From: an uncultured Anaerolineales bacterium
GTDB taxonomy: Bacteria > Chloroflexota > Anaerolineae > B4-G1
NCBI GenBank assembly: GCA_964530325.1
Contig: CAZHAX010000002.1
Location: 6,400 to 70,399 of the forward strand
Length of the DNA: 64,000 nt
Direction: 5' to 3'
A program made the position numbers and the translations under genes. The notes under the pieces are model-generated. The model ran no database searches, had not been told where the DNA came from, and worked only from the letters and a program-made list of their open reading frames with translations. This document shows, piece by piece, positions 10,025-42,759 of this stretch; within the stretch, counting starts at the first letter, position 1, and each line of letters begins with the position of its first letter.

Positions 10025-10031
10025 CTCTCCC

Positions 10032-18384: not shown

Positions 18385-18439
18385 AGTCTAGCACATCGGC
18401 TGCCTGGCGGCGGTGTCGGTACGGTTACAGCTACGTTAC
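18385..18439 (-). promoter_or_regulatory. Promoter with 11-bp-period direct repeat (OmpR-family-type box) for the signalling cluster
   Basis: Minus strand: GTAAC-gtagct-GTAAC, 33 nt, TAGACT preceded by TGTGC. Confidence 0.6.
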
Positions 18440-18530
18440 CGGCAGAGCGGGAGGGGACTTGCCCCTGAGCACGTACAGGAGGCGCAGGGGTGTGCCCCCA
18501 CTTGACCTGGCGCGGCAGCCTCAGCTGGTG

Positions 18531-18556
18531 TATAATACTAACCGAACACCTGTTCT
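18531..18556 (+). promoter_or_regulatory. uvrB -10 element and LexA SOS box
   Basis: TATAAT at 18531-18536, then CGAAC-ACCT-GTTCT (18543-18556) over the expected TSS; matches the GAAC-N4-GTTC LexA motif of Firmicutes, Actinobacteria and Chloroflexota. Confidence 0.85.
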
Positions 18557-18570
18557 ATAGGGCTGTGCCA

Positions 18571-20616
18571 ATGGCGCGACTAGAGCTAGTCTCCCAGTTC
18601 CAGCCTACCGGCGACCAGCCGGAGGCGATCGAGTCCGTCGTGAAGGGCGTCCGCGATGGGTTCAAGCATCAGACGCTCCTGGGCGCTACTGGCACCGGGA
18701 AGACTTACGTCATCTCCAACGTCATCGAGCAGGTGCAGAAGCCCACACTGGTGCTTGCTCACAACAAGACGCTGGCAGCCCAGCTCTATTCCGAGTTCAG
18801 CGACTTCTTCCCCAACAATGCGGTCGAATACTTCGTCTCCTACTACGACTACTACCAGCCCGAGGCCTACGTTCCCAGGCACGATCTGTACATCGAAAAG
18901 GATGCCGATATCAACGAGGAGATCGACCGGCTGCGGCTGGCCGCAACGACCTCCTTGCTCTCCAGGCGGGACGTGATCATCGTGGCCTCCGTATCCTGCA
19001 TCTACGCTATCGGTGATCCCGAGGAATGGGGCAAGGTCGTGGTCAAGCTGGCCCGGGGTGAGCACCATCGGCGCGAAAGCCTCCTGCGACACCTGGTGAG
19101 CATCTACTACGAGCGGAACGATCTTGACCTGAAGCGGGGAGCGTTTCGTGTCCGCGGCGATACTCTCGACGTCGCCCCGGCGTACGGCCAGACAGCCTAC
19201 CGCATCGGCTTCTTCGGCGACGAGGTGGAGCGCATCAGCGAGATCGACCCCCTTACCGGAGAGCTTCTGGGCGAAATGGAGGAGCTGCAGATCTTCCCCG
19301 CCAAGCACTTCGTTACCCCAGAGGACAAGAGGCAGGCGGCGCAGGTCGACATCGAGGCGGAGCTGGAGGAGCGGCTGGCGGAACTGCGCAGCCAGGACAA
19401 GCTGCTGGAGGCGCAGCGGCTTGAGCAGCGCACAAAGTACGACCTGGAGATGATCCGCGAGGTTGGCTACTGCTCCGGGATCGAGAACTACTCGCGCCAC
19501 CTGCAGCAGCGGCCGGCCGGGTCGCCCCCGTGGACGTTGATGGACTACTTCCCGGCGGACTTCCTGCTCGTGGTGGACGAATCGCATATGACGATTCCGC
19601 AAGTGCGAGGCATGTACCACGGCGACCGGCGCAGGAAGGAGACGCTCGTCGAGTATGGCTTCCGCCTGCCCTCAGCGCTCGACAACCGGCCGCTCGATTT
19701 CGAGGAGTTCGAAGCCCGGATCAACCAGGTGGTGTACACGTCCGCCACGCCGGGCCCCTATGAGCTGGAGAAGAGCGAGCAGGTGGTGCAGCAGATCATC
19801 CGGCCCACGGGCGTCGTCGATCCGCAGGTTATCGTCAAGCCGGTAAGCGGCCAGGTGGATGATCTGGTTGGGCAGATCAACGAGCGCGTGGCCCGCGGCG
19901 AGCGCGTGCTCGTTACCACGCTGACGAAGCGTATGGCAGAGGACCTGGCCGATTACCTGCGCGAGTTGGGCATCAAGGTGCACTACCTGCACAGCGAGGT
20001 ACATACGATCGAGAGAGTGGAGATACTGAGGGACCTGCGGCTCGGGGCCTACGACGTTGTCGTGGGCATCAACCTTCTGCGCGAGGGGCTCGATCTGCCC
20101 GAAGTGAGCCTGGTGGCCATACTCGACGCAGACAAGGAGGGGTTCCTCAGGTCGGATACGGCGCTGATCCAGACGATCGGCCGGGCCGCGCGGCACGTCG
20201 AAGGCACGGCGGTGATGTATGCGGACAAGGTGACTGATTCGATGAAGCGGGCGCTGGAGGAGACGGAGCGGCGGCGACGGGTTCAGATCGATTACAACGA
20301 AGAGCACGGGATCGTGCCCGCCACGATCGTGAAGGAAGTACGGGACCTGACCGATCGCGTTCGTGTGGAGGGAGCTCCCGAGCCGAAGGCGGGGTTGAGC
20401 CTGGAGGATCTGCCGAAGGACGAACTCTCGCACCTGATCCTGGAGCTGGAGAGACAGATGAAGAAAGCCGCCGGCGAATGGCACTTTGAGAAGGCAGCGC
20501 TCCTCCGTGACCGGATCATCGATCTGCGGGCCGTGCTGGCGGACAAGGAGGCGGGGGACAAACCTGCCTGGGAGTGGGAAAGGCTACGGGCTCGACTTGA
20601 GCAGGGGGACGGATAG
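18571..20616 (+). CDS. uvrB: Excinuclease ABC subunit B
   Basis: [60 protein letters not shown]-terminal UVR coil. Confidence 0.98.
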
Positions 20617-20892
20617 AGGGGGCGGGATGCCGCGCTCTTGCTCCAATCCCCTGGCTCGCCGGAGCCTGAAGGCCTTGGCCCTCCGCTAGTCTCAGCGCAA
20701 CGACGAAGCGACTCTCTCCAGCTGGATTGCCCCGGCCTGACTACAGCGCGCTGCTCTTCTGCTACCCTGCTTCGCGAGGGCGGGGGAACAAGAAGGCGCC
20801 CCTCTTCGTCATTACAGGCAGACCGAATGGTCGCAGCCGCCGGCGGACGTGGCGGCCGGCCGGATAGAGGTCGGCGATGCAGAGGGACGGGA

Positions 20893-21363
20893 ATGACTAC
20901 TAAGGTGATGATGGGTTTCGTGAGCGCGATTCTCTGCTCGCTGGTGGCCTGTTCGGCGGCGGAGCCAACGCCGACGCCTACGTCTGAGTGCCAGCTGCAC
21001 GACGCCGCGTTGGGTCTGTCCGTGGCGAGGACGACGGTGCGCAGGGGGGAGCAGCTAACGGTCACGGTCTATCTCTCCAATACCGGCTGCGCGCGCCTTG
21101 GGCTGCCCGAATACCGCCTGTTCGTCATACCTGAGGAGGGTGGGGAGCCCCTGGATCCAGTCTATCCCGCCTCTGTCGTCCACAGCCTGGCCGTCGCGCC
21201 GGGGGATGGTGACTCTGCCGAGTTCACGCTGCGTGCGGCGGAGGCCGGCCTGGTCAGGCTCGAGGCCTCCGTGAGCTTCGAGGCTCACCTCGGCTATCCG
21301 GGCCCCGCGTACTGGGCATCCTGCGCTGCCGAGGAGGGTATAGTGGTGAGGGTCGAGCCGTAG
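20893..21363 (+). CDS. Lipoprotein with one Ig-like (CARDB/DUF11-like) domain
   Basis: Lipobox LVAC, PT-rich linker, GEQLTVTVYLSNTG beta-strand pattern. Confidence 0.6.
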   Translation: MTTKVMMGFVSAILCSLVACSAAEPTPTPTSECQLHDAALGLSVARTTVRRGEQLTVTVYLSNTGCARLGLPEYRLFVIPEEGGEPLDPVYPASVVHSLAVAPGDGDSAEFTLRAAEAGLVRLEASVSFEAHLGYPGPAYWASCAAEEGIVVRVEP

Positions 21364-21473
21364 GCCCTGCCCAGCCTTCGCTCGAAGGGGGATGTGCTTA
21401 CCTGCGCGGTCTGTCTTGATGCGGTTGGCCACAGCGACTCAGACTGAGCGAGCAATCCGTAGATGAGGTGACC

Positions 21474-21989
21474 ATGAGAACGCGAACTGTCTGTCTTGTC
21501 TTTGTCCTCCTTGTCGGCCTGCCGTCCCTGGTAACCTGTGTGCCGCCCGCCTCACCCACGCCCAGCCCCACGGGGAGTGAACTGGTCGAGGTGACGGTAT
21601 ACTTCACAGATCAGGATCGCTACGCTGCAGGCCTGGAGCCGTACGAGGTCGGAGTTGCCCGGTCCGTCTCCGCGGACGCATACTTGCCCGAGGTGGTCCT
21701 ATCCGAGTTCTTCGCGGGGCCCACTCCGGCTGAGCAGGCGCAAGGTCTGGTGGCGATCGCGAGCGGCGCGACCGGCTTCAGCTGGCTCAGTATCGAGGGT
21801 GGTATTGCGCGCGTCTATCTGAACGGCGCTTGCTCGTCGAACGGCGCAACGTACACCATAGCCCAGCCGATAACGAAGAACCTGCGGCAGTTCGACGAGG
21901 TGGAGCACGTGAAGATCTACGACGACTCGGGCGAGACTGAGGTGCCCGAGGGTCCTTCGGACTCTATTCCATTCTGCCTGGAGCCGTAG
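21474..21989 (+). CDS. GerMN-domain (lipo)protein
   Basis: Signal peptide/LVTC, PT linker, VTVYF, FAGPT..E..QGL, SIEGGIARVYL, ITKNLRQFDEVEHVKI. Confidence 0.78.
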   Translation: MRTRTVCLVFVLLVGLPSLVTCVPPASPTPSPTGSELVEVTVYFTDQDRYAAGLEPYEVGVARSVSADAYLPEVVLSEFFAGPTPAEQAQGLVAIASGATGFSWLSIEGGIARVYLNGACSSNGATYTIAQPITKNLRQFDEVEHVKIYDDSGETEVPEGPSDSIPFCLEP

Positions 21990-22090
21990 CAGAGCGCCGC
22001 CCTACCCGGCCAAAGTACGGGCGGCCGCAGGGCGCGTGGAATCACTGGGATAGCGGCGCGCAGCCTTTTCTCACCGGACTGAGCGCGGCG

Positions 22091-23128
22091 TTAGTAGAGC
22101 CTGTACTCCTCGCGCAGCCTGTCGGAGAGCTCGCGCGTGACGCGAAAGACGTGCTCCGCCACTGCAACAGACAGCGTGCCTGTGCCGCAAGCGGGGGTAA
22201 CCAGAGACTGAGCGAGCAGTTCAGGGCGCTCGAACCCCTTTCCTTCGAACAGCGCCAGCGCCCGTTCCAGTACCTCGCGCGCCTCTTGGGCGGTGATCGT
22301 CGCTGCCGCGTCGCCGGAGCTGGGCACCACTCCCCAGGCCAGCATACCGCCGCGCCCCAGGAAACCGCGCAGCTCCTCCGGGTATAGGGCCACCGTCTCG
22401 GCGTACTCGTAGGCGTCGAACGAAAGGATGTTCACCGACGTCCCCAGGAGCAGGCTCCAGTCCGTGTTGGCGCAGCAATGCGCGCCGGTCCAGCCCTCCA
22501 GGCCGGAGAGGACCTCCTCCAGAGCATCGATCACCTGTTCCCGAGGCAGGCTGGCGTAGGCGCTGCCCACCATCGACAGGAACGGTTCGTCCACGAACAT
22601 GATCGTCCGCGGGCACAGCTTGCGCAGCTCTCTCTCCTGCCACTGGCCGTGACGGAGAGCGTTCTTGACGATCATGTCTCGCATCATGTCGTCGTACAGG
22701 CTGGGTCGCCGCTCCTGGTCCGTCACCTGCAGGCCGAAGCTGATCGGTCCTGTTACCTGCCCCTTGACAGCCCACGCTCCATCGAGCGGTCCGGCAGCGG
22801 CGAAGCGGTGGAACCCGGCGGCGTACTTGGCGGTGAGGGCGAACCTCTCCGGCTCCTCCTCGAGGAACGCGGCGTAGAAGGGCTCCGCGGCGTCCAGCCA
22901 GCCATCGCTGAGCTGGACAGTTATCTTCTCTCCATCTGTGACAATACCCGGCAGGTACTCCGAGAACTGGGCGTACATGTTCTCCCAGAAGTCGCGGCGC
23001 GGCAGCTGTGGCCAGAAGGGGATGTCCTCGAACGTCTCCAAGATCAGCGCGACAGCCGCCGCCGCGTCCTTGTGTGGAGTACTGCCGATTCCGGTTGCCC
23101 GGCAATTGGGGCGGGCGGACTGACTCAT
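22091..23128 (-). CDS. Core-MetE (folate-independent, MesB-like) methionine synthase
   Basis: Single catalytic barrel (345 aa): GIGSTPH, PFWPQLPRR..ENMYAQFSE, KGQVTGP, DEP, Zn ligands H-x-C (GAHCC) and TPACG; no N-terminal folate-binding barrel. Confidence 0.75.
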   Translation of the reverse strand: MSQSARPNCRATGIGSTPHKDAAAAVALILETFEDIPFWPQLPRRDFWENMYAQFSEYLPGIVTDGEKITVQLSDGWLDAAEPFYAAFLEEEPERFALTAKYAAGFHRFAAAGPLDGAWAVKGQVTGPISFGLQVTDQERRPSLYDDMMRDMIVKNALRHGQWQERELRKLCPRTIMFVDEPFLSMVGSAYASLPREQVIDALEEVLSGLEGWTGAHCCANTDWSLLLGTSVNILSFDAYEYAETVALYPEELRGFLGRGGMLAWGVVPSSGDAAATITAQEAREVLERALALFEGKGFERPELLAQSLVTPACGTGTLSVAVAEHVFRVTRELSDRLREEYRLY

Positions 23129-23139
23129 CTGCTCTAGCC

Positions 23140-23928
23140 CTATCCGCCCTGTGCCGCAGACCTGAGGCGACCGATGAAGAAGGCCAGGCTGGCTCCCAGG
23201 ACGGCGCCGGCCGCGGCGAGGAACAGCCAGTCAGTCGGCTCAGTGGGGTCCTCACCAGTCACAGGCAAGAGCGGGGCCTCCGGCTCGTACGGCTCCGGCA
23301 CCGGCTCGGGAGTGCGGTAGGCGATGTCCAGGTAGGGGCTGGTGGTGGGATCGCCCGCCGTTAGCCGGCGAGCGGCGGCCCAATCGTCCGCCGTAGAGCT
23401 CAGATCGGCCGAGGTGACGGCCAGACCGTTGTTGGGCGTGCCGGCCCGCCAGGCCTGCACCAGCGCGGTGATCTCCCAGCTGTACCAGCCGGCCGCCGAG
23501 GAGACGTCCGTCGTGGCCAAGGCGGCGTCCAGCGCGGGCCAGGCGGACATGTTGTTCCAGTCGATCGAGGCAGCGCTCCAGGCCGCACTTACGCCGTAGA
23601 CGGACATCGGAGCACTGCCGGCGTCGGGTGACCAGTCGTCCACGTAGACCTGGAGGGTAGCCGATTCGATAGTCGCGTCTGCGGGAATCGCGCCAAGCGG
23701 AAAGCGCAGGTAGGTGCGGCAGAAGACGTCGCTACCGGTGTCGGGGCCCACGTAGTTGCCGAAGGGGAGGATCGTCTCGCTCCAGCGCTCGCCAGAGCCA
23801 GGATCCTCCGAAAGGACGCCGACGCTCTGGTCCGGGCCGACGCTCAGGTGGCTCTGCGCCACGGCGGTCGTGCCCAGGGCAGCTGCACAAAGCGCGATCG
23901 CGCAGAGGGGGAGGAGTAGTCGCTTCAT
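23140..23928 (-). CDS. Secreted DNRLRE/CBM96-like domain protein with LPXTG-type sorting signal
   Basis: Signal peptide; RTYLRFPL..IP.DATIESATLQVY, WEITALVQAW...NNGL, PYLDI; then LPVTG + hydrophobic helix + RLR tail. Confidence 0.75.
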   Translation of the reverse strand: MKRLLLPLCAIALCAAALGTTAVAQSHLSVGPDQSVGVLSEDPGSGERWSETILPFGNYVGPDTGSDVFCRTYLRFPLGAIPADATIESATLQVYVDDWSPDAGSAPMSVYGVSAAWSAASIDWNNMSAWPALDAALATTDVSSAAGWYSWEITALVQAWRAGTPNNGLAVTSADLSSTADDWAAARRLTAGDPTTSPYLDIAYRTPEPVPEPYEPEAPLLPVTGEDPTEPTDWLFLAAAGAVLGASLAFFIGRLRSAAQGG

Positions 23929-24006
23929 CAGTCCCTCCTGTTCACTGGGGCCATTCGGCCCGGCTACGCCTGGCGATTCCGGCGCAAGCGCATCCGGCTG
24001 CGCGTA

Positions 24007-27000
24007 CTACTGCAGCTTGTCCTTGATGGCTGCCTGTCGCGGCCACCAGCCGGTGTAGTTGCTCATCACCAACGGAAGGAAGGCGAAGTTCGTTCGCAGC
24101 GTGGCGTTGATCTCAAGCGGGCCTCCCAGCCGGTCCTCTACGACAACCTGGCGCGGAGTGAGCCCCGCATGCGGGAACTCGTGCACGAAGCGCCCGTCCG
24201 TGTAGGCGATGATACGATAGGAGTCGGGCGGCGCCAACGGCGCCCGAGCCCAGGGCCCGGTATCGCCCGGTACGAACTCGAGAACGAGACCGACCGTCCT
24301 TCGCCCGCCTGGCGGCATGTCCGGCAGGGCGAAAGAGGCCCAGTCACTGCCCTGCGCGGCTGTGGGCACGGTGGAGGAGGTCAGCGTCACTCCAGACGTG
24401 AAGGCGACGGTGATGAGGTTGCTCTTGGCGATGTAGTCACCCTGGTTGAAGACGCCGACGTCGACCGCAGCCTGGTTCAGCACATTGGGCGCCACTCCGT
24501 CGATACGGCGGCCCGTCGTCGTATCGGTCACCGCCTGGACCGTGTAGGAGACCACCAGGTTCGCTCCGTGCACCTCGACCGTCTGCAGGTTCCCCGTGTC
24601 TGTGTAGACCTGGGCGAAGTCGTCCGTATACGTTATCACCGGTGCGTAGTCGATCACGAACGTGCCGCTGCCGTCGATCGCAGCTTTGGATCGGAGGACC
24701 ACGAACAACTCGCCCTGGCGCTCCCCGTTCTCCAGCCAGGGCATCTGGCTGGCGTCGAGCGTGGCCGATACAGGCAGCGTGAACTCCACTTCTGTGCCGC
24801 CTGAGACCGTGCTGGTCACGAACGATACCGGAGTCAGGGCGCTGAAGAGCGCGGTTCCCGTGGAGACATGGCCGACGGCCAGCTCGGCCTGCAGGGCAGC
24901 CGCCTCGGCGGCGTTGGCCAGCCCTGCCTCGATCGGGGTGGTCCACCCAGGGAGCAGATCCTCCAGCTCTAGGTTGATCGCCTGGCCCCAGACGGTCTGC
25001 ACGTCGCAGTAGCCGTGGGAGCCGACGCCGATCTCGGCAGCCGGTACCTCGAAGTAGGCCGGCAGGCCGTCTGCAGTCACGGCGAATTCGATCTTGTGTA
25101 CCTCGCCCACGTCGGCGAAGGCCGGGTCGACTTCGACGTCGTAGTACCACACCGTGCGCCAGGCATCGGTCACGATAGCCTGGTGGAGGAAGGGGAAGTC
25201 GAAGAAGAGCGGCTCGATTGACATCGTCTCCGTCACGCTGCGGGTGGTGACAGTGATGCCGGAGGGGGCAGTCGGCGTGATGATCAGATTGGTCAGCGTA
25301 ACGCCGTGGTTGTTCCGTATCTCCAGCCGGACCTGCGTCTCCTCTCCGGGAGCGACGCGGGACCACAACAGGTCGGGCCCGTGGCGGCCGCCTACGTAGA
25401 CGGTCGCGGCCATGTCGCCGAAGCCGTACGACTTGATGAACGGGTCCCAGCCCACGCAGCGCGGGTCCCAGGGATCCTCGATGCGCAGGAAGTGGTAGAC
25501 CTCGTCGTCGAAGGTGGCTACGAGAACAGGCTCTACCGCCTTGTTCACCTGGGCGTCAGCCGAAAGGCCGAAGACCGCCTGGACGTGGGTGTCGTAGACC
25601 TCGTATCTGCTGGGCCCCACTGCCTTCTGGTGGTAGACGAAGCGCGCCCCATCATCGATCTTCATCACACCCTCGCGGTGGAAGTCCGGGTAGGTGCTCA
25701 GCGTGGTGCTGATAAGCAGGCCCTCACGGGCCTGGCTCTCCAGGTACTGCTGGAAGTAGAGGTAGTCGTAGGCTGGGACGGTGACGACTGTGATCAGATC
25801 TGTGTCCGTGAGGTAGCCCTGCAGGTGGAGCGAGTCCCAGGAGCTCTCCCAGTCGCCGTACATTGGCAGCAACTCGAATCCACGTCCGCGGAACATGCCC
25901 TGGGCGATCAGCGTCTCGTCCTTCTGGAGAGGGTCCATGGCCGGGTCGAAATCGGACCATGTCTTCAGGTAGAGCTGCAAGTCCGCTCCCTCTCGGCAGG
26001 GCAACTCCAGCACACGCACCTCGCCGCGCCCGTCGTCATCGCGATCCACCTTGATCTCGAAAGTGGTGTTGACGACGGCGTGATACTCAGGCGGCGGGAA
26101 GGGGACGATATCGTAGAAGACGGTGCGCAACTCCATTTCCTGCGGGCGATCCCAGATGTCCTGGTAGGCCACGCGGGGCATCTCGTGGGGAACCGGGATG
26201 TGGATCACGCCACTGGCGAGATACTCGTGGTAGGGGATGGGGTGGCCGCCCAGGTTGGTGTAGACCGAGCCGCCCGAGCCATCGAGTACCAGGCTGGGGC
26301 TGATCGGGTCGCTGGCGAAGGACACCGTGCGGCTGAGAAGCTCGTGGCTGAACAGCCCGTAGCGGACCGCGGGCTCCTGGTAGTCGTACCCCGGCAGCGG
26401 CCCAAAGTCCCAGACCATCGTCAGCGCCGGAAGGAGGATATCTCCCTCGGTGGTGACGGTGATGTACTGCTCGTAGCCGGGCGGGATAAGCACGGAGTTG
26501 GTGAAGCCGGGCGTCGTCGTGAAGCTGCCGCTATAGGTGTAGACGTGTCTGGGGCCGTTCTCCCAGGTGTTGAGACTGTAGAAGGTGCCGGCGGCGATCG
26601 TCGTCGCCCCATCTATCTCGTCGGGGAGCGGGTAGACGGGTGCCGGTGTTTCGTAGAAGAAGACCTCGTTCAAGGCCCACAGCGTGTCCGAGAGAGAGTC
26701 TGTCGTGCTCGCGCCCCAGGCGTCTGTGATCACCTGTGGTACCAGCCTTTGGTCGTCTACGTCGACGATGGGGGATATGAGCGCGACCACGTCCGTGACC
26801 ACTATCGACTTGGCCCCGGTCTCCTCCTTGTTCTCCAGAGTGAGAGCGATATCGAAATAGCTGCCGTCGCTCGATAGCGGGTAGATGCCGTCGAGCTCGA
26901 TGTCCCTGTCCCCCACCAATCGGGCCGCCATCAAGGCGTCGATCTCAAGCTCATTGCGGACCACGTGGCGCGGCAATCCTGCCGGGTGCAGCTCAGTCGT

Positions 27001-28413: not shown

Positions 28414-28523
28414 CTCATACTCCTTGCGGCCACCGTCCCCACGGCGGGTCGCGATCGAAGCGACGCTTGGCCCACTGAGAGAAGAACGGCCGTGGCCAGG
28501 TTACTCGTCAAGGTAGTTCAGCA

Positions 28524-29417: not shown

Positions 29418-29612
29418 TGCGCTGCCCTCCGGGCCGCCTTGAGAGTGGTGCCGATCATACCAGAGATGGCCGCTTTGGGCAAGCGTGTGAAGCAGGGTTC
29501 GGGGGAGCGCGGTCCGATCTTCGATGCGGGATACCGCATCGGCACGTTCCCGAGACGAGACAGGCAGCGCCCCGTCGACATCCAGGCGACCGGGGGCTGA
29601 TGCTGCCGGGTC

Positions 29613-29641: not shown

Positions 29642-29649
29642 AGGGTGGG

Positions 29650-31687: not shown

Positions 31688-31708
31688 CAGACAACGCCCC
31701 AGCGAGCT

Positions 31709-31737
31709 TTGCCCGAAGCAGAGGGCCGATGTATAAT
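31709..31737 (+). promoter_or_regulatory. Sigma70-type promoter of the sugar ABC permease operon
   Basis: TTGCCC-17-TATAAT. Confidence 0.65.
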
Positions 31738-31792
31738 GCGGCCCATCGTCTGGCAGGGGCGCAGGAGTTCTTGTGAGAGCTGGAAGCCGACA

Positions 31793-32728: not shown

Positions 32729-32730
32729 CC

Positions 32731-33810: not shown

Positions 33811-33863
33811 CCTGGCTGTGTCGGCTCTGGTCGTACCCGTTGCCAGGCAACCGTGAGGTGAGG

Positions 33864-35105
33864 ATGAGACCGCCCTTCCGTACCGTCGTACTGATCTGGC
33901 TGGCCTGGGCTCTGGTCCTGATCGGCTACCAGGCCGTTGTCGCCGTGCGGGTGGAGCTGGTGCGCCCGGACCGGGTGCTTCCTTGGACGGACACGGAAAC
34001 GACGGCGACCGCCCAAGACGACCAGCCGTACCTGCTCGACCCCTTCCTCAACCACCAGGTGTCCTGGGATTCGGAGTTCTACCTCTCGATCGCCGGGGTG
34101 GGCTACGACGATCCGCTCGTGCGCGCTACTAGCGAGGATGAGAACGGCGTATCGCTGAACTACGCTTTCATGCCTTTCTATCCCCACGTCATCCGTTTCA
34201 TCGCCCTTCCCCTCAGCCTGCTGGACCTGACCCCGATCGCCACCGGCACGTTGGCCGGGGTCATCGTTTCTGCACTGGGTACCCTGGCAGGAATGCTGGC
34301 CTTGTTCGATCTGGCGCGCGATGAGCTGGGGGATGCCGGCGGTGTCAGAGCTGCCTTCTACCTGCTCATCTTTCCCGGCGGCTTCTTCCTGCTGCAGGTC
34401 TACACGGAAGGGCTGTTCGTCGGGCTCGCATTCTCCTCCCTGGCGCTGATCCGCCGCCGCCGCATGTTCTGGGCTTCCCTCCTGGCCGTCTTTGCCACAT
34501 GGACGAAGGCGGCGGGAATCGCCTTGGCCATCCCGCTGGCCTTGGCCTGGATCGAAGAAGGGAGCTGGACCGCTCTGGACCTGGAATGGAAGCAGCTGAT
34601 GCTCCAGAAGTTCCCCTGGAGGGCGGCCCGGAAGCTGCTGCTCGTCCTGGCCCCTGCAATTGCCTTCTTCGTGTGGAGGCTCTCCTACTGGGGCTTCGCC
34701 TTCGGCAGCGTGGAGACCGCCGTCTTCGGGCGAGGGCTGTTCTCACTGACCCTGTCCGCAGCCACCTGGTCGGGCGCCTTTCGGTCGCTGTTCGGCGACA
34801 ACGCACAGGCTGCGGCATACTACCTTGTGGAGTTCGTCGCCATAGTGCTGGGTCTCGTGGCCTGCCTTGCCACGCTGCGACGATTCCCCGGGCCGAGTCT
34901 GTTTGGCCTGGCGGTGATCTTCCTTTCGCTCACCAGCGGGCCGGCCCAGGGCATGCACCGGTACGTCCTTGCGGCCCCATCCGTCTTTCTGTTCCTGGGC
35001 CGCCTGGGCAAGAATCCGGCCTTCGACAGAGCGTGGACCGCGGCCAGCATCATGTTCATGGGGCTGTTCGCGACGATGTTCACGTTCGATATGTGGGCGG
35101 GTTGA
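33864..35105 (+). CDS. GT-C fold glycosyltransferase (PIG-V/mannosyltransferase-like)
   Basis: WDSEFYLSIA..GY, AFMPFYP, YTEGLF, many TM helices, RYVL. Confidence 0.78.
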   Translation: MRPPFRTVVLIWLAWALVLIGYQAVVAVRVELVRPDRVLPWTDTETTATAQDDQPYLLDPFLNHQVSWDSEFYLSIAGVGYDDPLVRATSEDENGVSLNYAFMPFYPHVIRFIALPLSLLDLTPIATGTLAGVIVSALGTLAGMLALFDLARDELGDAGGVRAAFYLLIFPGGFFLLQVYTEGLFVGLAFSSLALIRRRRMFWASLLAVFATWTKAAGIALAIPLALAWIEEGSWTALDLEWKQLMLQKFPWRAARKLLLVLAPAIAFFVWRLSYWGFAFGSVETAVFGRGLFSLTLSAATWSGAFRSLFGDNAQAAAYYLVEFVAIVLGLVACLATLRRFPGPSLFGLAVIFLSLTSGPAQGMHRYVLAAPSVFLFLGRLGKNPAFDRAWTAASIMFMGLFATMFTFDMWAG

Positions 35106-35285
35106 GGAGGATAGCTTTCGAACGGCTGTCAGGCGTACCGCTTGGCGAGCGGGCAAGGACCCGGTGCTAGGCCGGGACGACGCTTTCTCTCTGAGCCTGA
35201 CTGCTCCGCAACCAATACGTCACCGCCGTGTACTAGCCCATATAGGCGTCTCTGAGGGCGCATCCATCGATTAGGGGGGAGATCA

Positions 35286-36215
35286 ATGACAAGCTTGAGG
35301 AAGTACGGAGTCGGTTTGGTAGCCGCGGCGGCGCTCGGTTCCTTGCTCTTGACCTCGTGTGCGCCCACAGCGGTTCAGCTGGCGCTCAAGGTGCAGGAGG
35401 GCGATGTCTACAGGGTGCGGATGATATCCCAATCGGTAACCCTGTCGTCCAGCGACGCGGGGGATAGCACATCCTACGATACGAGCGGGTTCGACATGAC
35501 CTTCACCGTTGCCGAGGTCGACGAGGATGGCAATATCTGGCTCGACATCGTATATGACTGGGCCACGACGGGCACGACGGCCGGAACAGGCGACGTGGAT
35601 GCGCCGGACGAGCCTGACCCCGGCGAGGAGGGTGTCGCGGAGCTGGAGGGCAGAGGATACTCGGCTAAGGTTGCTCCGAACGGCGAGGTGCTGGAGATCG
35701 CGGGCGACAACGATCTGCTCAACGAAGTCCTGGACGAGCTGGGGCTCAGTGATGAGGAGATCCTGCTCGGATTCGGACAGATGATCGAGAACATCATCGG
35801 CGACGATGGCCTGAAGGTTCAGGTGAGCAACGTTATCCCCGAGTATCCGGAGGGCGAGGTGGAAGTCGGAGATAGCTGGACGGTCACCAGCGAACTGCCC
35901 GGAACGCTGGCGATGATCGTGGAGACCACGTACACTCTCCGCGCGCTGGAGGACGGAGTGGCGACGATCGATGTGGCCTCTACGGTCAATACGGACCCGG
36001 ATGCCTATCCGCTCGACCTGACGCTGTACGAGATCACGTATGACCTCTCGGGATCGGGTGAAGGTCTCCTGCAGGTAGATGTGGATACCGGCTGGACGAG
36101 CAGCGCCACTATCACCTCCACGCTGTCCGGCGAGTCGCTCATCGTGATGGGCGACATGGAGTTGACCGTGCCGATGTCGGTGGAGGGCGTGACCACACTG
36201 GAGATGCTCGACTAG
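35286..36215 (+). CDS. Acidic lipoprotein, DUF6263-like
   Basis: RBS GGGGAG, lipobox LTSC, LKVQEGDVY, YPEGEVEVGDSW, VDVDTGW beta-rich pattern. Confidence 0.6.
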   Translation: MTSLRKYGVGLVAAAALGSLLLTSCAPTAVQLALKVQEGDVYRVRMISQSVTLSSSDAGDSTSYDTSGFDMTFTVAEVDEDGNIWLDIVYDWATTGTTAGTGDVDAPDEPDPGEEGVAELEGRGYSAKVAPNGEVLEIAGDNDLLNEVLDELGLSDEEILLGFGQMIENIIGDDGLKVQVSNVIPEYPEGEVEVGDSWTVTSELPGTLAMIVETTYTLRALEDGVATIDVASTVNTDPDAYPLDLTLYEITYDLSGSGEGLLQVDVDTGWTSSATITSTLSGESLIVMGDMELTVPMSVEGVTTLEMLD

Positions 36216-36309
36216 CGGCCTGCTTCTTCTAGCACGCCAACCCCTCCATAGAGGATGGCACCCGGCACCCGAACAGGAAGCCGGGTGCCTCTCTTTCAGC
36301 GGCGCTGTC

Positions 36310-36337
36310 TTGACAACCGCCCCTGCCAGGCTAGAAT
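36310..36337 (+). promoter_or_regulatory. lepA promoter
   Basis: TTGACA-16-TAGAAT. Confidence 0.65.
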
Positions 36338-36359
36338 GGTGCGTGGAAGGGTGGTGGTC

Positions 36360-38168
36360 TTGGATCAATCCCGCATCCGCGATTTCTGTATCATTGCCCA
36401 TATCGATCACGGCAAGTCGACGCTGGCCGACCGGCTGCTCGAGCGGACCGGCACGATAACCGAGCGCGACATGAAGGAGCAGGTGCTCGATTCGATGGAT
36501 CTGGAGCGGGAGAAGGGTGTGACGATCAAGGCTTCGGCCGTCAGAATGTCCTACGAGGCCCCAGGCGGCCAGGAATACGAGCTGAACCTGATCGATACGC
36601 CGGGCCACGTCGACTTCTCCTACGAGGTGAGCCGGGCCCTGGCCGCGTGCGAAGGGGCGCTGCTGGTCGTGGATGCAGCCCAGGGGATAGAGGCCCAGAC
36701 GCTGGCCAACCTATATCTGGCCTTGGACGGCGACATGGAGATCATCCCGGTCGTGAACAAGATAGATCTGGCCATTGCCCGGCCGGACGAGGTGGCGCTG
36801 GAGTTGGCTGACCTGCTGGGGATGCAGCCGGACGACGTGCTGCACGTCTCCGCCAGGGAAGGGCGGGGCGTGGAGGAGCTGCTTGAGGCAGTGGTCGCGC
36901 GCTTGCCATCGCCCCGAGGCGCGGCTGAATCCCCCCTCCGAGCGCTCATCTTCGACTCGCACTACGATCCCTACAAAGGGGTCGTCGCCTACGTGCGGGT
37001 TGTCGACGGCGTGCTGAGGGACGGCGAGGCGCTCCTATTGATGGCGACTGGCTCTGAGACCGAGCCGGTGGAGGTGGGCATCTTCAAGCCGCAGATGAGC
37101 GCCGTCGAGCGGCTGACGGCGGGAGAGGTAGGCTACGTCGCTACCGGGCTGAAGACGATCCGCGAGTGCCAGGTAGGCGATACGATCACCTCCGCCGTGC
37201 AGCCAGCGCCCGAGGCGTTGAGCGGCTATCGTCCGGTCAAGCCGATGGTCTTCGCCGGCCTCTTCCCTATCGAGGGCGAGGACTACAACGCGCTGAGGGA
37301 TGCTCTACAGAAGCTCCAGCTGAACGACGCCGCCCTCGTCTTCGAGCCGGAGAGCTCGCAGGCGCTCCAATTCGGCTTTCGCTGCGGCTTCCTGGGCCTG
37401 TTTCACATGGAGATCGTACAGGAGCGGTTGGAGCGTGAGTACGGTCTGGAGCTGATCGCCACCGCTCCGAGCGTGGCCTATGAGCTGCTTACCCACAGCG
37501 GGGATGAGATCACTATCTCCAGCCCGGCGGATCTGCCCGACCCGGCGACGATCGAGGAGATACGCGAGCCGTGGATGCGCATCCAGGTCTTCACCCCGGC
37601 GGACTATATCGGGTCGGTGATGGAAGTGGTGAAGCGGCGGCGCGGCGAGTACGTTTCCACCGAGTACCTGGACGCCCAGCGGGTGATGATCGCCTATGAC
37701 GTGCCGCTAGCCGAGATGATCGTTGACCTACACGACAGGCTCAAGTCCGTCACCCGGGGTTATGCCTCGATGGACTACACATTCGCCGGCTACCGGGCTG
37801 GCGATCTGGTTCGGATGGACATCCTGGTGAACAAAGAGATACTGGACGCGCTGGCTCTGATCGTCCACCGCGACCAAGCTCAGGAGAAGGGCAAGGCGCT
37901 GGTGCACAAGATGAAGGAAGTGATCCCCCGGCAGATGTTCGCCGTCCCGATTCAGGCGGCTATCGGCGGCAAGATCATCGCCAGGGAGACGGTGAGCGCC
38001 TTGCGCAAGGACGTGCTTTCCAAGTGCTACGGGGGCGACGTCAGCCGCAAGCGAAAGCTGCTGCAGAAGCAGAAGGCGGGCAAGAAGAGGCTCAAGCAGT
38101 TTGGGCAGGTGATGGTTCCTCAGGAGGCGTTCCTGGCGATGCTAAGCCTGGGCGAGGACGAGGGCTGA
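36360..38168 (+). CDS. lepA: Elongation factor 4
   Basis: TTG start; [60 protein letters not shown]. Confidence 0.97.
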
Positions 38169-38176
38169 GAAGGCCG

Positions 38177-40090
38177 ATGGCGCGAGACGGCCTCCGCATA
38201 GCCGTAGGTCTGGGGCTTGTCCTCGCTGCCCTGGCCGGCTGCTCGGGGACGGGTGGGATCGAGGTCGGCACTCGCCGGCCCGGGGGCACCGCTGTGGCCG
38301 TGCCCACGTCGGACACGTCCATCGCGGCGGGGCCCAAGTTGCTTAACGTCTGCGTGCTGGGCGAGCCCGATTCGCTCTACTTGTACGGTGGCTCCGGAAT
38401 CGACGCCACTCAGCACGTTCTTGCATCGCTGTACGATGGCCCCGTCGACTATCTCGACTACACAGCACAGCCGGTGATACTGGAGAGCCTGCCCAGCTTC
38501 GCCGCCGGCGATGTGATCACCCGCGCGCTGCGGGCCTATCCCGGCGATATCGTCGTCGATGCCGAGGGTCAGGTGCAGGAGCTGGCCGCTGGACTTCGAG
38601 TGCGCCCGGCCGGATGCTATCGGGATGAATGCGCCGTCAGGTTCTTCGGAGAATGGCTGCTCATGGAGCGCATGGAGGCCACCTTCACGATCAAGGAGGG
38701 GGTCACCTGGTCGGACGGCGAGCCGGTCACAGGGGCGGACTCCGTCTTCGCCTACCAGGTCGTGCGGGATCCGGCCACGCCCGTAGGAGACTACATCGTA
38801 GAGAGAACGACGAGCTACGTCGCCGTGGGAGAGCGGGGCGTGAAGTGGACCGGTATCCGGGGCTACTACAACTCCACTGTGGCGACGGCCTTCTTCGCTC
38901 CGCTGCCCAAGCACCAGCTGGAGGATTACACGCCGGAGCAGCTGCTGCAGATCGAGGAGACGAGGCGAAGCCCGCTCACCTGGGGGCCCTTCATCGTCGA
39001 CGCCTGGGTCGCGGGGGAGTATCTGGCGCTGTCACCAAACGAGCATTACTTCCGCGCCGCCGAAGGGCTGCCCCATCTCGATCAACTGGTCTTCAAGTTC
39101 GCCGATGACGCCGCGGAAGTGGCCGCCCGGGTCCTGACGGCGGAGTGTGACTTGGGCGTAGGTGTGGGATACTCGGATTGGGAGCCGTTTCTGCCTCTGC
39201 TTGCGGCCGCCGAGGACCGGGGCGAGGTGCGGCTGGTCACGGCGGGTACGGACCTGTGGGAGCACATCGATTTCGGCATCCTGCCGGCATCGTACTACGG
39301 GAGGCCTGCCTTTTTCGGCGAGGCGGCAATAAGGCGGGCGATCGTCCAGTGCATAGACCGCCAGGCGATCGTCGACGAGGTCACCTACGGGCACGGCACC
39401 ATCTCCCACAGTTACCTGCCGGCCGAGCACCCGCTCTATGCTGGCGACCGGCTCGTGCAGTGGGACTACAACCCCGGGGCGGCTAATGCACGGCTCGAGG
39501 AGTCCGGCTGGATCGACGCCGACGAGGACGGCGTTCGTGAGTCACACAGCGTCCCGGGAGTCTTTTCCGGCACGCCGCTGAGAATCACGCTGCTGGCTTC
39601 GTCGGATGATCTGATCTCGCGTCAGGTTGCCGGTATCGTCCGAGTCAACCTGGCAGACTGCGGGGTAGACGTTGAAGTGGAGATGCTGGCGTCGGAAACG
39701 CTGCTGGCGCCTGGCCCGGACGGGCCTGTCTTCGGCCGGCAGTTCGACATGGCGGAGATGACGTCCGACCTGGACGCGACCGGGACATGCCGGCTCTTCC
39801 TTTCGTCCGAGGTCCCCTGGGGTCTGGCCTGGGAGGGGATCAACCCCAGCGGGTATTCCAGCGAGGGTTTCGATGCAGCTTGCGAAGCGGCGCTCAGCGC
39901 GCGGCCGGGCTCCGACGACCACCAGCAATACCACGAGCTGGCCCAGGCGATCTTTGCCCAGGAGCTCCCGGCAATTCCGCTTTTCTGGCGGCCGCGCCTG
40001 GCGCTGGCCCGCCCGCACGTTCTGGGCTTCGAGATCAACAGCACTGCTCCGAGCGACCTTTGGTCGGCTGAGACGCTGGACATCGAGTAG
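38177..40090 (+). CDS. Family 5 (peptide/nickel) ABC substrate-binding lipoprotein, orphan
   Basis: Lipobox LAGC, EPDSL, WSDGEPVTGADSVF, GPFIV..W, RRAIVQCIDRQ, LPAIPLFW. Confidence 0.88.
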   Translation: MARDGLRIAVGLGLVLAALAGCSGTGGIEVGTRRPGGTAVAVPTSDTSIAAGPKLLNVCVLGEPDSLYLYGGSGIDATQHVLASLYDGPVDYLDYTAQPVILESLPSFAAGDVITRALRAYPGDIVVDAEGQVQELAAGLRVRPAGCYRDECAVRFFGEWLLMERMEATFTIKEGVTWSDGEPVTGADSVFAYQVVRDPATPVGDYIVERTTSYVAVGERGVKWTGIRGYYNSTVATAFFAPLPKHQLEDYTPEQLLQIEETRRSPLTWGPFIVDAWVAGEYLALSPNEHYFRAAEGLPHLDQLVFKFADDAAEVAARVLTAECDLGVGVGYSDWEPFLPLLAAAEDRGEVRLVTAGTDLWEHIDFGILPASYYGRPAFFGEAAIRRAIVQCIDRQAIVDEVTYGHGTISHSYLPAEHPLYAGDRLVQWDYNPGAANARLEESGWIDADEDGVRESHSVPGVFSGTPLRITLLASSDDLISRQVAGIVRVNLADCGVDVEVEMLASETLLAPGPDGPVFGRQFDMAEMTSDLDATGTCRLFLSSEVPWGLAWEGINPSGYSSEGFDAACEAALSARPGSDDHQQYHELAQAIFAQELPAIPLFWRPRLALARPHVLGFEINSTAPSDLWSAETLDIE

Positions 40091-40128
40091 CGCGCTTCCC
40101 GGCGGCACAGAGCAGTCACGGTGGTGAT

Positions 40129-41793
40129 ATGGAGACCAGGCAGGATCCACTAGCGCCGCGCATACTGGTCGTTGAAGATGACCGCGACATGGTGGTCCTT
40201 CTGAAGCATATGCTAGCTCCCGTCCACGCTGACGTGCTCGTCGCCTACTCGGGGGACGAGGCCTTCAAGGTGCTGGTTGAGCAGGCGGAGACGGGCAGGC
40301 CGGTCGATCTGATCCTTTTGGACATAATGGTTCCGGGCATGGATGGGTACGAGGTGGCGGCGCGGGCCAAGGCGGACCGGCGGCTGCGCGATGTATCTAT
40401 CATCATGACCACGGCGATCGACTCTGTCGAGAGCAAAACGCTCGGCTTGGGGCTGGGGGCGGACGACTACCTGACGAAGCCCTTCGATCCCCAGGAGCTC
40501 CTGGCCCGGATCGACGCTGTGATGCGCGTCCGCCGCAGCGAGGCGGCGTTGAAGCGGCGCAACCAGGAGCTGGCTGCCCTTGTCGAGGCCAACCGCATGG
40601 TCAGCTCGAGCCTCGACCTGGATGAGATCTTGGCGGCTACCATGCGCGGCATCGGGGGGATCGTTCCGGTGGAAGCGGGCCTGGTGGTGCTCGTCGGCGA
40701 GGAGAGCGACGAGCTGGAGGTGCGCACCACCTTCGGGCCGGAAGAGGACGGAAGCGGCAGGAAGATGGAACGGGGGGAAGGGGTCATCGGCCACGTGGTC
40801 GAGTCGGGCCAGCCCAGGCTGGTGAACGACGTGGACCGGGACCCACACTTCCTGCCGGAAGTAGACGAGGTTGGAGGGGTCACGGCCCAGAGCATACTCT
40901 GCGTGCCACTGGCCGCGCGCAGCCGGGTCATCGGCGCGATGCAGCTGCTCAATCGGTCCGGTGGGGCGTTCACCGACGAGGACCAGGAGCTAGTGGAGGC
41001 GATAGCGGCCTCTGTGGCCGTGGCCCTGGAGAACGCCGCCCTATATGGGGAGCTGGCGGACTTCGCGCAGGAGATAGAACGCTCGCAGGCCCAGCTGGTG
41101 CAGGCAGAGAAGATGGCGGCCATCGGCAGGCTGGCTGCTTCGGTCGCTCACGAAATCAACAACCCTCTGCAGGCGATTCACAACACTCTGCATCTCTCCC
41201 GGCAGGAGAAGCTGGGGGCGGAGAAGCGACGCGAGTACCTGGAGATGGCGGAGAGTGAGGTGAAGCGCCTGATCAGCATCGTTCAGCGTATGCTTGATTT
41301 CTACCGGCCGTCCAAGGGAGGTGTCGCCCTCGTCGACGTAAACGAGGTCGTGGAGAACGTTCTGAAGCTGGCGGCGAAGAAGATGCAGCACAGCGGCGTC
41401 GCCGTGAGCGCCGACCTGGGTGAGCTGCCCCCGGCGGAGTTGGTGCAGGACCAGATCGCCCAGGTGTTCCTGAACCTGGCGATCAACGCCACCGAGGCTA
41501 TGCCTGGCGGCGGGGAGCTATCCGTGCAGACGATGCTCTCGGACGACGGGGAATCCGTGCTGGTGAAGTTCAGCGATGGCGGAGAGGGGATGAGCGCCGA
41601 GCAAGTGGCCAACCTGTTCGAGCCCTTCTACACCACCAAGCAGAACGGCACCGGACTCGGCCTGGCCATTAGCTACGGTATAGTGGAGCGGCACGGCGGC
41701 GACATCGAAGTGGTGAGCCAGCCCGGTGAGGGGTCCACCTTCACCGTCCGTCTGCCTGTACAGGGGGTGCGTGGGGATCGCAGCCCAGGGTGA
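40129..41793 (+). CDS. Hybrid kinase REC-GAF-HisKA-HATPase (NtrB-like core)
   Basis: ILVVEDD, LLDIMVP, KPF; GAF; AHEINNPL, NLAINA, TTKQNGTGLGL. Confidence 0.9.
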   Translation: METRQDPLAPRILVVEDDRDMVVLLKHMLAPVHADVLVAYSGDEAFKVLVEQAETGRPVDLILLDIMVPGMDGYEVAARAKADRRLRDVSIIMTTAIDSVESKTLGLGLGADDYLTKPFDPQELLARIDAVMRVRRSEAALKRRNQELAALVEANRMVSSSLDLDEILAATMRGIGGIVPVEAGLVVLVGEESDELEVRTTFGPEEDGSGRKMERGEGVIGHVVESGQPRLVNDVDRDPHFLPEVDEVGGVTAQSILCVPLAARSRVIGAMQLLNRSGGAFTDEDQELVEAIAASVAVALENAALYGELADFAQEIERSQAQLVQAEKMAAIGRLAASVAHEINNPLQAIHNTLHLSRQEKLGAEKRREYLEMAESEVKRLISIVQRMLDFYRPSKGGVALVDVNEVVENVLKLAAKKMQHSGVAVSADLGELPPAELVQDQIAQVFLNLAINATEAMPGGGELSVQTMLSDDGESVLVKFSDGGEGMSAEQVANLFEPFYTTKQNGTGLGLAISYGIVERHGGDIEVVSQPGEGSTFTVRLPVQGVRGDRSPG

Positions 41794-41800
41794 GGTGACA

Positions 41801-42619
41801 ATGGACAGTCACGATCGAGCGATTCGATTGATGGTCGTGGACGATGAGGCTGTGGCCCGCGTCTCGATGGCCGAGGTGCTGAAGCTAGAGGGGTACGAGG
41901 TGCACACGGCGGCCAGCGGGGAGGAGGCGCTGAGCCTCCTGGAGAAGAGCGGCCCGTTCGACCTCATGGTGCTCGATCTGAAGATGCCGGGGATGGACGG
42001 GCTGGAGGTGACCGAGGCGGTGGGCGAGCGCTCGCCCGGAACGGTGATCATCTTGCTGACCGCCTTCGCCACGCTGGAGACGGCAATCGACGCGGTGCGC
42101 AAGGGAGCGCACGACTACCTGCTGAAGCCGTGCCCTGTCCCGGAGGTCCTGGAAAGCGTGCGCAAGGGTCTGGAGAAGCGCCACCAGGAGAGGCAGCGGC
42201 AAGTGCTCGTGAACCAGCTGGAGCAGACGATATCGCGGCTGGCTTCAGTGGAGGGTGGCGAGCTTCCCCAGCCGGCTGCCCCTGTCCGCGCCGACCGCTT
42301 CGCCAAGATCGGCGACCTGGCGCTCGACCGGCAGAAGCACGTGGCCTCGATGGGCGGCCGGCCGCTTGATTTGACACCGACAGAGTTCAAGATACTGGCT
42401 TGCCTCATGGAGACGCCGGACGAAGTCTGGAGCCCTCGGGACCTGGTGCGGCGGGCGCAGGGCTACGATACGGATGCCTGGGGAGCCCGGGCAATCGTCC
42501 GTGTGCACATCCGCCGCCTGCGTAAGAAGATCGAGCAAGATGCCTCGAATCCCCGCTACATAGTCAACGTGCGGGGTGTAGGCTACCTCCTTTCCTCGGG
42601 TCGATCCGGCTCTGAGTGA
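41801..42619 (+). CDS. OmpR/PhoB-family response regulator with coiled-coil linker (272 aa)
   Basis: MVVDDE, LDLKMP, YLLKP; winged helix LDLTPTEFKIL...VRVHIRRLRKKIE...NVRGVGY. Confidence 0.92.
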   Translation: MDSHDRAIRLMVVDDEAVARVSMAEVLKLEGYEVHTAASGEEALSLLEKSGPFDLMVLDLKMPGMDGLEVTEAVGERSPGTVIILLTAFATLETAIDAVRKGAHDYLLKPCPVPEVLESVRKGLEKRHQERQRQVLVNQLEQTISRLASVEGGELPQPAAPVRADRFAKIGDLALDRQKHVASMGGRPLDLTPTEFKILACLMETPDEVWSPRDLVRRAQGYDTDAWGARAIVRVHIRRLRKKIEQDASNPRYIVNVRGVGYLLSSGRSGSE

Positions 42620-42702
42620 GTGTCGCTCGCAGCATCCCTCGCCTTGGCCGCGCTGGCGGCGGCCTTGCGGCGCGCCAGTAGGGCCAGATTCAGCGTCCCC
42701 AC

Positions 42703-42759
42703 CCGTAACCAAACCGTAACCCCTTCGTTACATGTACGTCCGGGGCAGTGTGGTATCCT
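42703..42759 (+). promoter_or_regulatory. Promoter with 11-bp-period direct repeat (OmpR-family-type box)
   Basis: CCGTAACC-aaa-CCGTAACC (GTAAC-N6-GTAAC), 33 nt, TATCCT preceded by TGTGG. Confidence 0.65.

Follow-up and report, generated by a model that had tools for sequence, protein, structure and literature searches.

Paired GTAAC arrays at two promoters of an uncultured Anaerolineales bacterium: a conserved candidate OmpR/PhoB-type operator and its apparent recent recurrence before a kinase cluster

In a stretch of 64,000 nt from an uncultured Anaerolineales bacterium (GTDB lineage Bacteria; Chloroflexota; Anaerolineae; B4-G1; assembly GCA_964530325.1, contig CAZHAX010000002.1, positions 6,400-70,399, forward strand), hereafter called the window, two promoters that lie 24 kb apart combine an extended -10 element with the same upstream array of direct repeats. 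The proteins encoded in the window likewise point to the Anaerolineae within the Chloroflexota. The first array (box 1) precedes a gene for an HTH_17-REC protein and a cluster of kinase genes. The second (box 2) follows the genes of a kinase and an OmpR/PhoB-family response regulator and precedes a gene for a protoglobin-like protein. We lean, with modest confidence, towards the explanation that both sites are class II activator-dependent promoters of the OmpR/PhoB type, box 2 being ancestral and box 1 a recent gain, and that both are served by the same regulator or by a paralog of it. The two parts of this explanation differ in strength. It is well supported by the sequence comparisons that the adjacent regulator drives box 2, and it is plausible but unproven that the same protein also drives box 1, in which case the two promoters would form one regulon.

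The Anaerolineae are abundant in sediments and sludge and count few cultured members, and to our knowledge the regulation of transcription in this class is almost unexplored. No publication on the present system of kinase, regulator, box and protoglobin was found in the literature searched. The envisaged mechanism, an OmpR/PhoB-type direct-repeat box that replaces the -35 element, is textbook, and the value of the case lies in annotation and regulon mapping. More specifically, it yields a precise prediction that needs no cultured host: a 27-bp operator, a likely regulator and a class-wide target gene. What stands out is the depth of the conservation of box 2 in an uncultured class, together with the apparent case of promoter replacement at box 1.

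Architecture of the two promoters

On the minus strand, box 1 reads GTAAC (18439-18435), gtagct, GTAAC (18428-18424), followed after 33 nt by TAGACT (18390-18385). On the plus strand, box 2 reads GTAAC (42705-42709), caaacc, GTAAC (42716-42720), followed after 33 nt by TATCCT (42754-42759). The hexamers are directly preceded by TGTGc (18395-18391) and TGTGg (42749-42753), respectively. An earlier note, made from the letters of this DNA alone, had described this common layout of GTAAC-N6-GTAAC-N33-(-10); every string in it proved exact, as did the coordinates, save that the regulator gene ends 85 nt before box 2 on recount, where 84 nt had been given. One helical turn further downstream a third unit is found, GACAC at box 1 (18417-18413) and GTTAC at box 2 (42727-42731), and both boxes thus consist of three direct-repeat units at an exact 11-bp period. 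Assuming that transcription starts about 7 nt past the -10, the units have predicted positions of -61/-57, -50/-46 and -39/-35, and the array abuts the -35 position at both boxes. The end of unit 3 is separated by 22 nt from the -10 hexamer, and the extended -10 (TGTGnTAnnCT) lies at the same distance at both sites. Upon alignment, the sites are identical in the two pentamers, the C after unit 2, the phasing and the register of TGTGnTAnnCT; the spacers differ.

The occurrence of the repeat pair was compared with chance expectation in 100 dinucleotide-preserving shuffles of the window, on both strands. The exact pair GTAAC-N6-GTAAC has two matches in the window, at 18424-18439 (-) and 42705-42720 (+), and 0.00 in the shuffles; the earlier statement that no other promoter of the window has this pair was correct. 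A relaxed scan, in which up to 4 mismatches were allowed over the three units and TANNNT was required at +/-1 spacing, returned only boxes 1 and 2, with 1 mismatch each, where 0.22 matches were expected. Nevertheless, for the two-unit pattern with 2 mismatches and the -10 ignored 14 matches were found versus 12 expected, which is background and uninformative. With respect to background frequency the exact pair is thus non-random and the degenerate one is not, and the signal resides in the exact units and the fixed spacing to the -10.

The same counts bear on the possibility that only box 2 is real, and that box 1 is a chance likeness or a non-functional relic. This is a matter of a single extra site, and its score with a spacer-inclusive matrix (see below) is not significant. 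Nevertheless, the exact pair was seen in 0 of the 100 shuffles and only 0.22 relaxed matches were expected, the site has the correct orientation and gene distance, it persists as a conserved island in four lineages, and the box 1 region offers no alternative promoter. We consider either possibility, chance or relic, very improbable.

A scan of the intergenic region of either box revealed no sigma-70 -35/-10 consensus pair and no TTGACA-like hexamer, in line with the earlier remark that a good -35 is missing. Since the 11-bp-phased repeats adjoin the -35 position, next to an extended -10 and without a -35, the boxes can be assigned to the OmpR/PhoB type, and the evidence from sequence supports the view that both are genuine cis-elements of that type. 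Indeed, three features of a class II site in this family are present: repeats at a 10-11 bp period, a position that abuts a poor -35, and a linked regulator with a Trans_reg_C domain.

Conservation of box 2, its regulator and its target

Relatives of the protoglobin-like gene were collected from assemblies and metagenomes, which gave 75 loci whose upstream sequence extends over 300 nt or more. The box 2 element is present in 72 of these, in 56 distinct sequences, with the consensus (G/T)TAACCAAAtCGTAACCCCTTCGCAAC, 22 nt, and then a -10 of TGGTATGCT. All 56 distinct promoters have three units at an 11-bp period as well as a TGnTAnnnT -10, mostly TGGTATGCT. The first unit is GTAAC in 41 and TTAAC in 15 of them, the second is GTAAC in 52/56 and the third GCAAC in 51/56, and the distance from unit 3 to the -10 is 22 nt in 52 and 21 nt in 4. 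The 27-bp box and the extended -10 have a high information content, in contrast to the stretches that flank and separate them, where it is low. At protein identities of 51-86%, this makes box 2 a clean phylogenetic footprint.

Where the sequence reaches far enough, nearly every locus encodes orthologs of the regulator (65-85% identity) and of the kinase (62-69%) directly upstream, and the order kinase-regulator-box-protoglobin is kept in ~60 diverged loci. In five loci there is no regulator gene within ~3 kb and the box is still found with the protoglobin-like gene, and in L021, L027 and L074/75 an insertion parts the regulator gene from the box. It thus belongs to the promoter of the downstream gene and is not the tail of the regulator gene. 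L027 also contains a second box-like site, on the other strand and at a distance of 184 nt from the main one (2554 (-) and 2738 (+)), which may be part of a divergent box-dependent promoter.

The regulator is encoded by the sole Trans_reg_C gene of the window (1.8e-22, Pfam), and tblastn with its C-terminal domain against the window finds only the gene itself. Among curated families it comes nearest to MtrA, RpaB, PhoB and YycF, falling well short of the equivalog cutoff in each case; RpaB, the second-best match, reaches 143 bits versus a cutoff of 330, and the PhoB model 124 bits versus 296. The best solved structures are MtrA (2gwr) and RpaA, and no GlnR chain is present among the best 60 of 155 PDB matches. 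The recognition helix reads ARAIVRVHIRRLRKK, and the pattern ARAI(V/I)RVH(I/V)RRLR(K/Q)K is invariant in 64/64 of the homologs recovered. The receiver resembles NtrC-type receivers, the linker (residues ~121-185) is unusually long at ~65 residues and partly coiled-coil-like (RHQERQRQVLVNQLEQTISRL), and the total length of ~270 residues is kept in the orthologs.

In the mechanism that we propose, the REC-GAF kinase would phosphorylate the OmpR-type regulator, which would then oligomerise head-to-tail on the three units between -61 and -35 and, by recruiting RNA polymerase through contacts with sigma region 4 and/or the alpha subunit, make up for the missing -35, the extended -10 (TGnTAnnnT) giving the remaining promoter strength. 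Box 2 would be the ancestral and class-wide target of the adjacent kinase and regulator (40129-42619), and would drive the sensor-globin gene and, in the lineage of the window, a small open reading frame (ORF) as well. Box 1 would be a recent gain, by which a box-dependent promoter took the place of the consensus sigma-70 promoter before the HTH_17-REC/multi-kinase cluster, and the same regulator, or a paralog with the same helix, would drive the HTH_17-REC gene and probably the six genes behind it. The layout resembles that of the GlnR and PhoB activation complexes at a poor -35 (PMC10235972). The position of the arrays bears on the direction of regulation: for RpaB, a box ~50 nt upstream of the start, with its centre near -48, is activating (PMC6525291), which is consistent with activation at the boxes described here. 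In the scan for sigma-70 promoters and terminators, the stretch from the regulator gene to box 2 showed no terminator, so that transcription may also read through from the regulator gene past the box.

The product of the target gene has profile matches to the globin domains of AfGcHK (5ohe) and GsGCS (2w31). It carries a Leu where the proximal heme His sits in these structures, and heme binding of the known kind is therefore unlikely; an alignment of 27 homologs contains no invariant His. The protein is probably a heme-less sensor globin, as judged from these comparisons. A C-terminal motif, VTGFSRTLYENL, is invariant among the homologs. The photoglobin family (PMC8717448) was considered as its identity and set aside in view of the direct matches to Pfam Protoglobin and the globin-coupled sensors.

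In the window the leader between the predicted start and the protoglobin-like gene spans ~360 nt (42766-43133), and in other lineages the distance from box to start codon can be as short as 94 nt. The leader contains the small ORF, the status of which is uncertain, and two strong hairpins, one at about 42776-42800 and one at 42802-42855 with a 13-bp stem (CCCCGCCGTCTAC/GTAGACGGCGGGG). Both hairpins and the small ORF are kept in L001, where a gene of 70 residues is called at this position, and are absent from L002 and L003. A search of the 5' leader (42600-43200) against Rfam gave no match. The coordinates of the elements and genes are collected in Table 1.

Table 1. Promoter elements and genes of the two loci, in window coordinates (HK, histidine kinase; aa, amino acids)
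Feature	Position	Strand	Basis or comment
Box 1, three 11-bp-phased units	18413..18439	-	predicted about -61 to -35
Extended -10 of HTH_17-REC promoter, TGTG-c-TAGACT	18385..18395	-	predicted start near 18378
HTH_17 (excisionase/MerR-like) + degenerate receiver, 188 aa, first gene after box 1	17727..18293	-	Pfam
Six further signalling genes after HTH_17-REC	7469..17704	-	Pfam; tightly spaced or overlapping
PBP-HisKA-HATPase	15239-17704	-	Pfam
MASE11-GAF-HK	13305-15341	-	Pfam
PBP-PAS-HK	10468-13308	-	Pfam
REC	10032-10625	-	Pfam
REC	9490-9936	-	Pfam
Hybrid REC-HK	7469-9484	-	Pfam
Candidate cognate kinase, REC-GAF-HisKA-HATPase, cytoplasmic	40129..41793	+	Pfam; 8 nt upstream of regulator gene
OmpR/PhoB-family response regulator, 272 aa	41801..42619	+	Pfam; REC residues 11-120, winged helix 186-264
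Box 2, three 11-bp-phased units	42705..42731	+	predicted about -61 to -35
Extended -10 of protoglobin-like promoter, TGTG-g-TATCCT	42749..42759	+	predicted start near 42766
Small ORF in leader, 74 aa	42870..43094	+	no family match; status uncertain
Protoglobin-like / globin-coupled-sensor-like protein, single domain, 197 aa	43134..43727	+	Pfam Protoglobin 3.3e-15

The box at other loci and in known systems

To look beyond the protoglobin loci, 185,579 species genomes were scanned for the pattern GTAAC-N-B-N4-GTAAC-N6-GNNAC-N18..20-TGNTANNNT, the B in which leaves out most box 2 orthologs. The scan yielded at least 119 loci, and the source genome is not among the matches listed. About 55 of these loci belong to the Chloroflexota, a phylum that accounts for just a few percent of the collection's species. 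At nearly every Chloroflexota site listed there is an ORF in the same orientation 10-135 nt downstream.

In ten of the Chloroflexota loci listed, homologs of kinase and regulator are encoded just upstream of the box. In four of these (L120, L153, L167 and L225) the regulators are 63-67% identical, the box follows the regulator gene after 15-35 nt, and the downstream gene encodes a Roadblock/LC7-like protein in place of the globin. In L124 the box directly follows the gene of a regulator paralog (51% identity), and in five further loci (L116, L154, L178, L211 and L224) paralogs of 50-52.5% identity are accompanied by one intervening gene; in all six a REC-Roadblock gene lies downstream. The association between regulator and box thus survives a change of the target gene, which is the strongest computational evidence that the family reads GTAAC x3 arrays. 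On this ground the regulator family very probably binds the GTAAC x3 box. Beside regulator homologs and paralogs, the usual target of the box is a family of proteins that combine REC with a weakly Roadblock/LC7-like part (REC/Roadblock-like targets in one set of seven loci and another of four), and a stand-alone form of the Roadblock/LC7-like C-terminal domain, without a Pfam match, is also a target.

In other Chloroflexota the combination of GTAAC x3 and an extended -10 precedes genes for SpoVS (spoVS), a YkuD L,D-transpeptidase, an HhH-GPD glycosylase, a prepilin, a solute-binding protein and Fur, as well as amtB-glnB in the Dehalococcoidia; the sites fall into groups of orthologous promoters, and many of them end in GAAAC. 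The spoVS arrays, found in at least six Anaerolineae metagenome-assembled genomes (MAGs), read GTAAC-N6-GTAAC-N6-GAAAC followed by a TG(A/C)TAA(G/T)AT -10; spoVS was confirmed in six of the eight loci concerned. Several MAGs have two box matches on different contigs, and two of them (Zod_Metabat.614 and GMC4.metabat2.178) each contain a regulator-adjacent box and a spoVS box. We regard spoVS as a candidate for remote membership in this regulon or in a paralogous one.

One could go further and regard the kinase, the long-linker regulator and the heme-less sensor globin as a class-wide module with multiple targets, the regulon of which has captured the seven-gene kinase cluster of the window. 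We put this forward only tentatively, and on balance think it rather unlikely in its full extent. If true, a multi-target regulon would span, via GTAAC x3, spoVS, the Roadblock/LC7-like switch proteins, L,D-transpeptidases and pilins, and the capture of the seven-gene cluster by promoter replacement would wire two signalling networks in series.

We rejected the possibility that the GTAAC repeats serve the Chloroflexota generally as a promoter or sigma-factor element. In 424 kb around 57 matches there is approximately one site per 8-kb locus; because the sites are this sparse, and because HTH_17-REC orthologs use TTGAC-N17-TATAAT promoters, the array is not a general promoter element.

Outside the Chloroflexota the same pattern precedes pstS in Methylomirabilis and in methanotrophs, PdaC-like cell-wall genes in Clostridia, and in Bacteroidales both a Na/Pi-cotransporter-PhoU gene and the gene of an autoregulated OmpR-type regulator. 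These matches have the appearance of Pho-box and WalR-type sites; Pho-like arrays of TGTAAC x3 were seen in three sets of six, two and six loci. GTAAC at an 11-bp period is a common half-site of a large OmpR-family clade (PhoB/WalR/MtrA/RpaB). For the window itself a Pho-regulon reading was rejected, as it contains no Pho genes and no PhoR-type kinase.

The boxes were also compared with characterised systems. GlnR boxes (gTnAc-n6-GaAAC) are occupied by four protomers head-to-tail around a poor -35 (PMC10235972). Like them, the boxes of the window have 5-nt sites with 6-nt gaps (an 11-bp period), a regulator of the OmpR/PhoB family, a non-optimal -35 and a good -10. GTAAC fits the a-site gTnAc and does so twice per box, whereas the b-site GaAAC does not occur in the window boxes (GACAC, GTTAC). 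Moreover, GlnR is an orphan, whereas the regulator described here has a canonical phospho-receiver and an adjacent kinase, with MtrA, RpaB and PhoB as nearest families; there are three units instead of two or four a/b sites, and the targets are signalling genes and not those of nitrogen metabolism. The arrays before the ammonium transporter gene in four Dehalococcoidia loci do look like actinobacterial GlnR boxes, which by analogy suggests a GlnR-like nitrogen regulator there; the transporter was confirmed with Pfam in L221, L127, L151 and L170 have homologous genes, and glnB follows in L127.

The sites of WalR/VicR (YycF), TGTWAH-N5-TGTWAH (PMC4168254), are likewise direct repeats at an 11-bp period. 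TGTAAC, as in unit 2 of box 1, fits TGTWAH, YycF is among the best families of the regulator, and the clostridial pattern matches precede genes of the cell-wall type. However, the leading T is present in only 1/4 of the window units (CGTAAC, CGTAAC, GGTAAC, TGTAAC) and variable in the orthologs, the array has three units, the kinase does not resemble WalK, and the targets in the window are not cell-wall genes. The Pho boxes of PhoB/PhoP share the 11-bp direct repeats that abut the -35 position of promoters without a -35, but here no Pho-regulon gene lies downstream and the kinase is a cytoplasmic REC-GAF protein and not PhoR. The HLR1 motif of RpaB, (G/T)TTACA, is a paired direct repeat as well, the other strand of which reads TGTAA(A/C), and it has a similar activating position; HLR1 differs in its 10-bp period and two units, and in orientation and spacing. 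Finally, the product of the box 2 target gene, with a sensor-globin fold closest to the AfGcHK and GsGCS globin domains and a genetic coupling to a kinase and a regulator, recalls the globin-coupled kinase AfGcHK (5ohe) and other globin-coupled sensors, although the globin is separate from the kinase here and has Leu in place of the proximal His.

Box 1: origin and regulator

The first gene behind box 1 encodes a protein with an HTH_17 domain (9.7e-13) and a Response_reg match (2.3e-4) that is below the family cutoff in Pfam. We infer that this gene and the six signalling genes that follow it form one operon. In the opposite direction uvrB is transcribed from 18568. A TATAAT at 18531-18536, within GGTGTATAATACTAACCGAAC (window 18521-18545, +), hardly varies across L004-L006 and L235 and probably represents the promoter of uvrB.

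Box 1 was found in four lineages, i.e. the window and relatives with HTH_17-REC proteins that are 70%, 78% and 80% identical. The string CCGGTAACGnAnCTGTAACCGTACnGA(T/C)AC is kept in all four, the intervening stretch and the upstream flank have diverged, and at the -10 TGTGCTA(G/A)ACTGAG is invariant in L004, L232 and L235. Box and -10 are thus conserved islands amid diverged flanks, which argues that the site is under selection. In the HTH_17-REC orthologs of 45-55% identity the situation is different: no box is found, and all of them carry a consensus promoter, CCCATTGAC-N17-TATAAT (TTGAC-N17-TATAAT), instead. The distance from the -10 to the start codon is similar to that of the box 1 gene, and one of these orthologs retains the divergent uvrB. 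Since the box is absent there, any link between the regulator and the kinase cluster is not ancestral. The simplest reading of these sequences is a promoter replacement, in which the -35 half of a constitutive promoter would have been swapped for the activator array; if so, it is a clear example of regulon rewiring, from a consensus promoter to an activator-dependent promoter in one lineage. With regard to conservation in orthologous promoters the two boxes thus differ, as box 2 is kept in 72 of 75 loci and box 1 in close relatives only.

This absence from the more distant orthologs is one of several observations that weigh against a common regulator of both boxes. Box 1 has only the pentamers and the -10 register in common with box 2. 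A matrix made from 57 box 2 orthologs, spacers included, scores 39.9 for box 2 and ranks box 1 second in the window with 4.6, a value reached in 6/30 shuffles; this matrix over-fits the spacers that are peculiar to box 2. No box is present upstream of the kinase-regulator genes themselves, where there is no sign of autoregulation. Moreover, the half-site is generic and paralogs with an identical helix exist, which makes the ownership of box 1 ambiguous.

The architecture may therefore be shared by different regulators, box 1 being bound by a paralog or by a PhoB-, MtrA- or WalR-like regulator encoded outside the window. We take this to be a serious possibility, albeit one that we would not expect to prevail. 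It agrees with the many unrelated genes, in Chloroflexota and in other phyla, that are preceded by GTAAC x3 and an extended -10, and it is in keeping with the paralogs of ~50% identity that share the recognition helix and have their own boxes, with the recent rise of box 1, and with the departure of its spacers and third unit from the box 2 consensus that is reflected in the low matrix score. However, only two sites are present in 64 kb, and the only OmpR-type gene of the window stands beside one of them. In addition, the two sites agree exactly in both pentamers, in the C that follows unit 2 and in the TGTGnTAnnCT register, and remote targets do exist in genomes with the regulator module.

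A different candidate for both boxes is the HTH_17-REC protein itself, which would autoregulate at box 1 and act at box 2. Box 1 lies in its own promoter, its HTH_17 domain shows a weak match to the BldC family (33 bits versus a cutoff of 77), and BldC/Xis-type HTH_17 proteins can bind direct repeats cooperatively and head-to-tail. We nevertheless consider its involvement improbable. Throughout the class, box 2 is kept next to the OmpR-type regulator, and elsewhere boxes follow regulator homologs at loci where no HTH_17 gene turned up, albeit in searches that were not aimed at HTH_17. In most lineages, moreover, the HTH_17-REC orthologs have consensus promoters without a box. Finally, the 11-bp phasing, the position against the -35 and the GTAAC half-site are classic traits of the OmpR/PhoB family (PMC10235972, PMC4168254).

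We thus retain the explanation of two OmpR/PhoB-type promoters that would be read by the same regulator or a close paralog. The earlier note had gone further in proposing that the regulator beside box 2 activates both operons. For box 2 this agrees with the 72 of 75 loci and with the linkage of regulator and box, whereas for box 1, and thereby for a single regulon, it is no more than plausible.

A last observation concerns the HTH_17-REC orthologs that use a consensus promoter. In five of them (L087, L089, L091, L093 and L094) the upstream region contains a strongly conserved AGTACCTTTnTCCCATTGAC-N17-TATAAT, and the conserved stretch upstream of the -35 in this sequence may be a binding site or an UP element.

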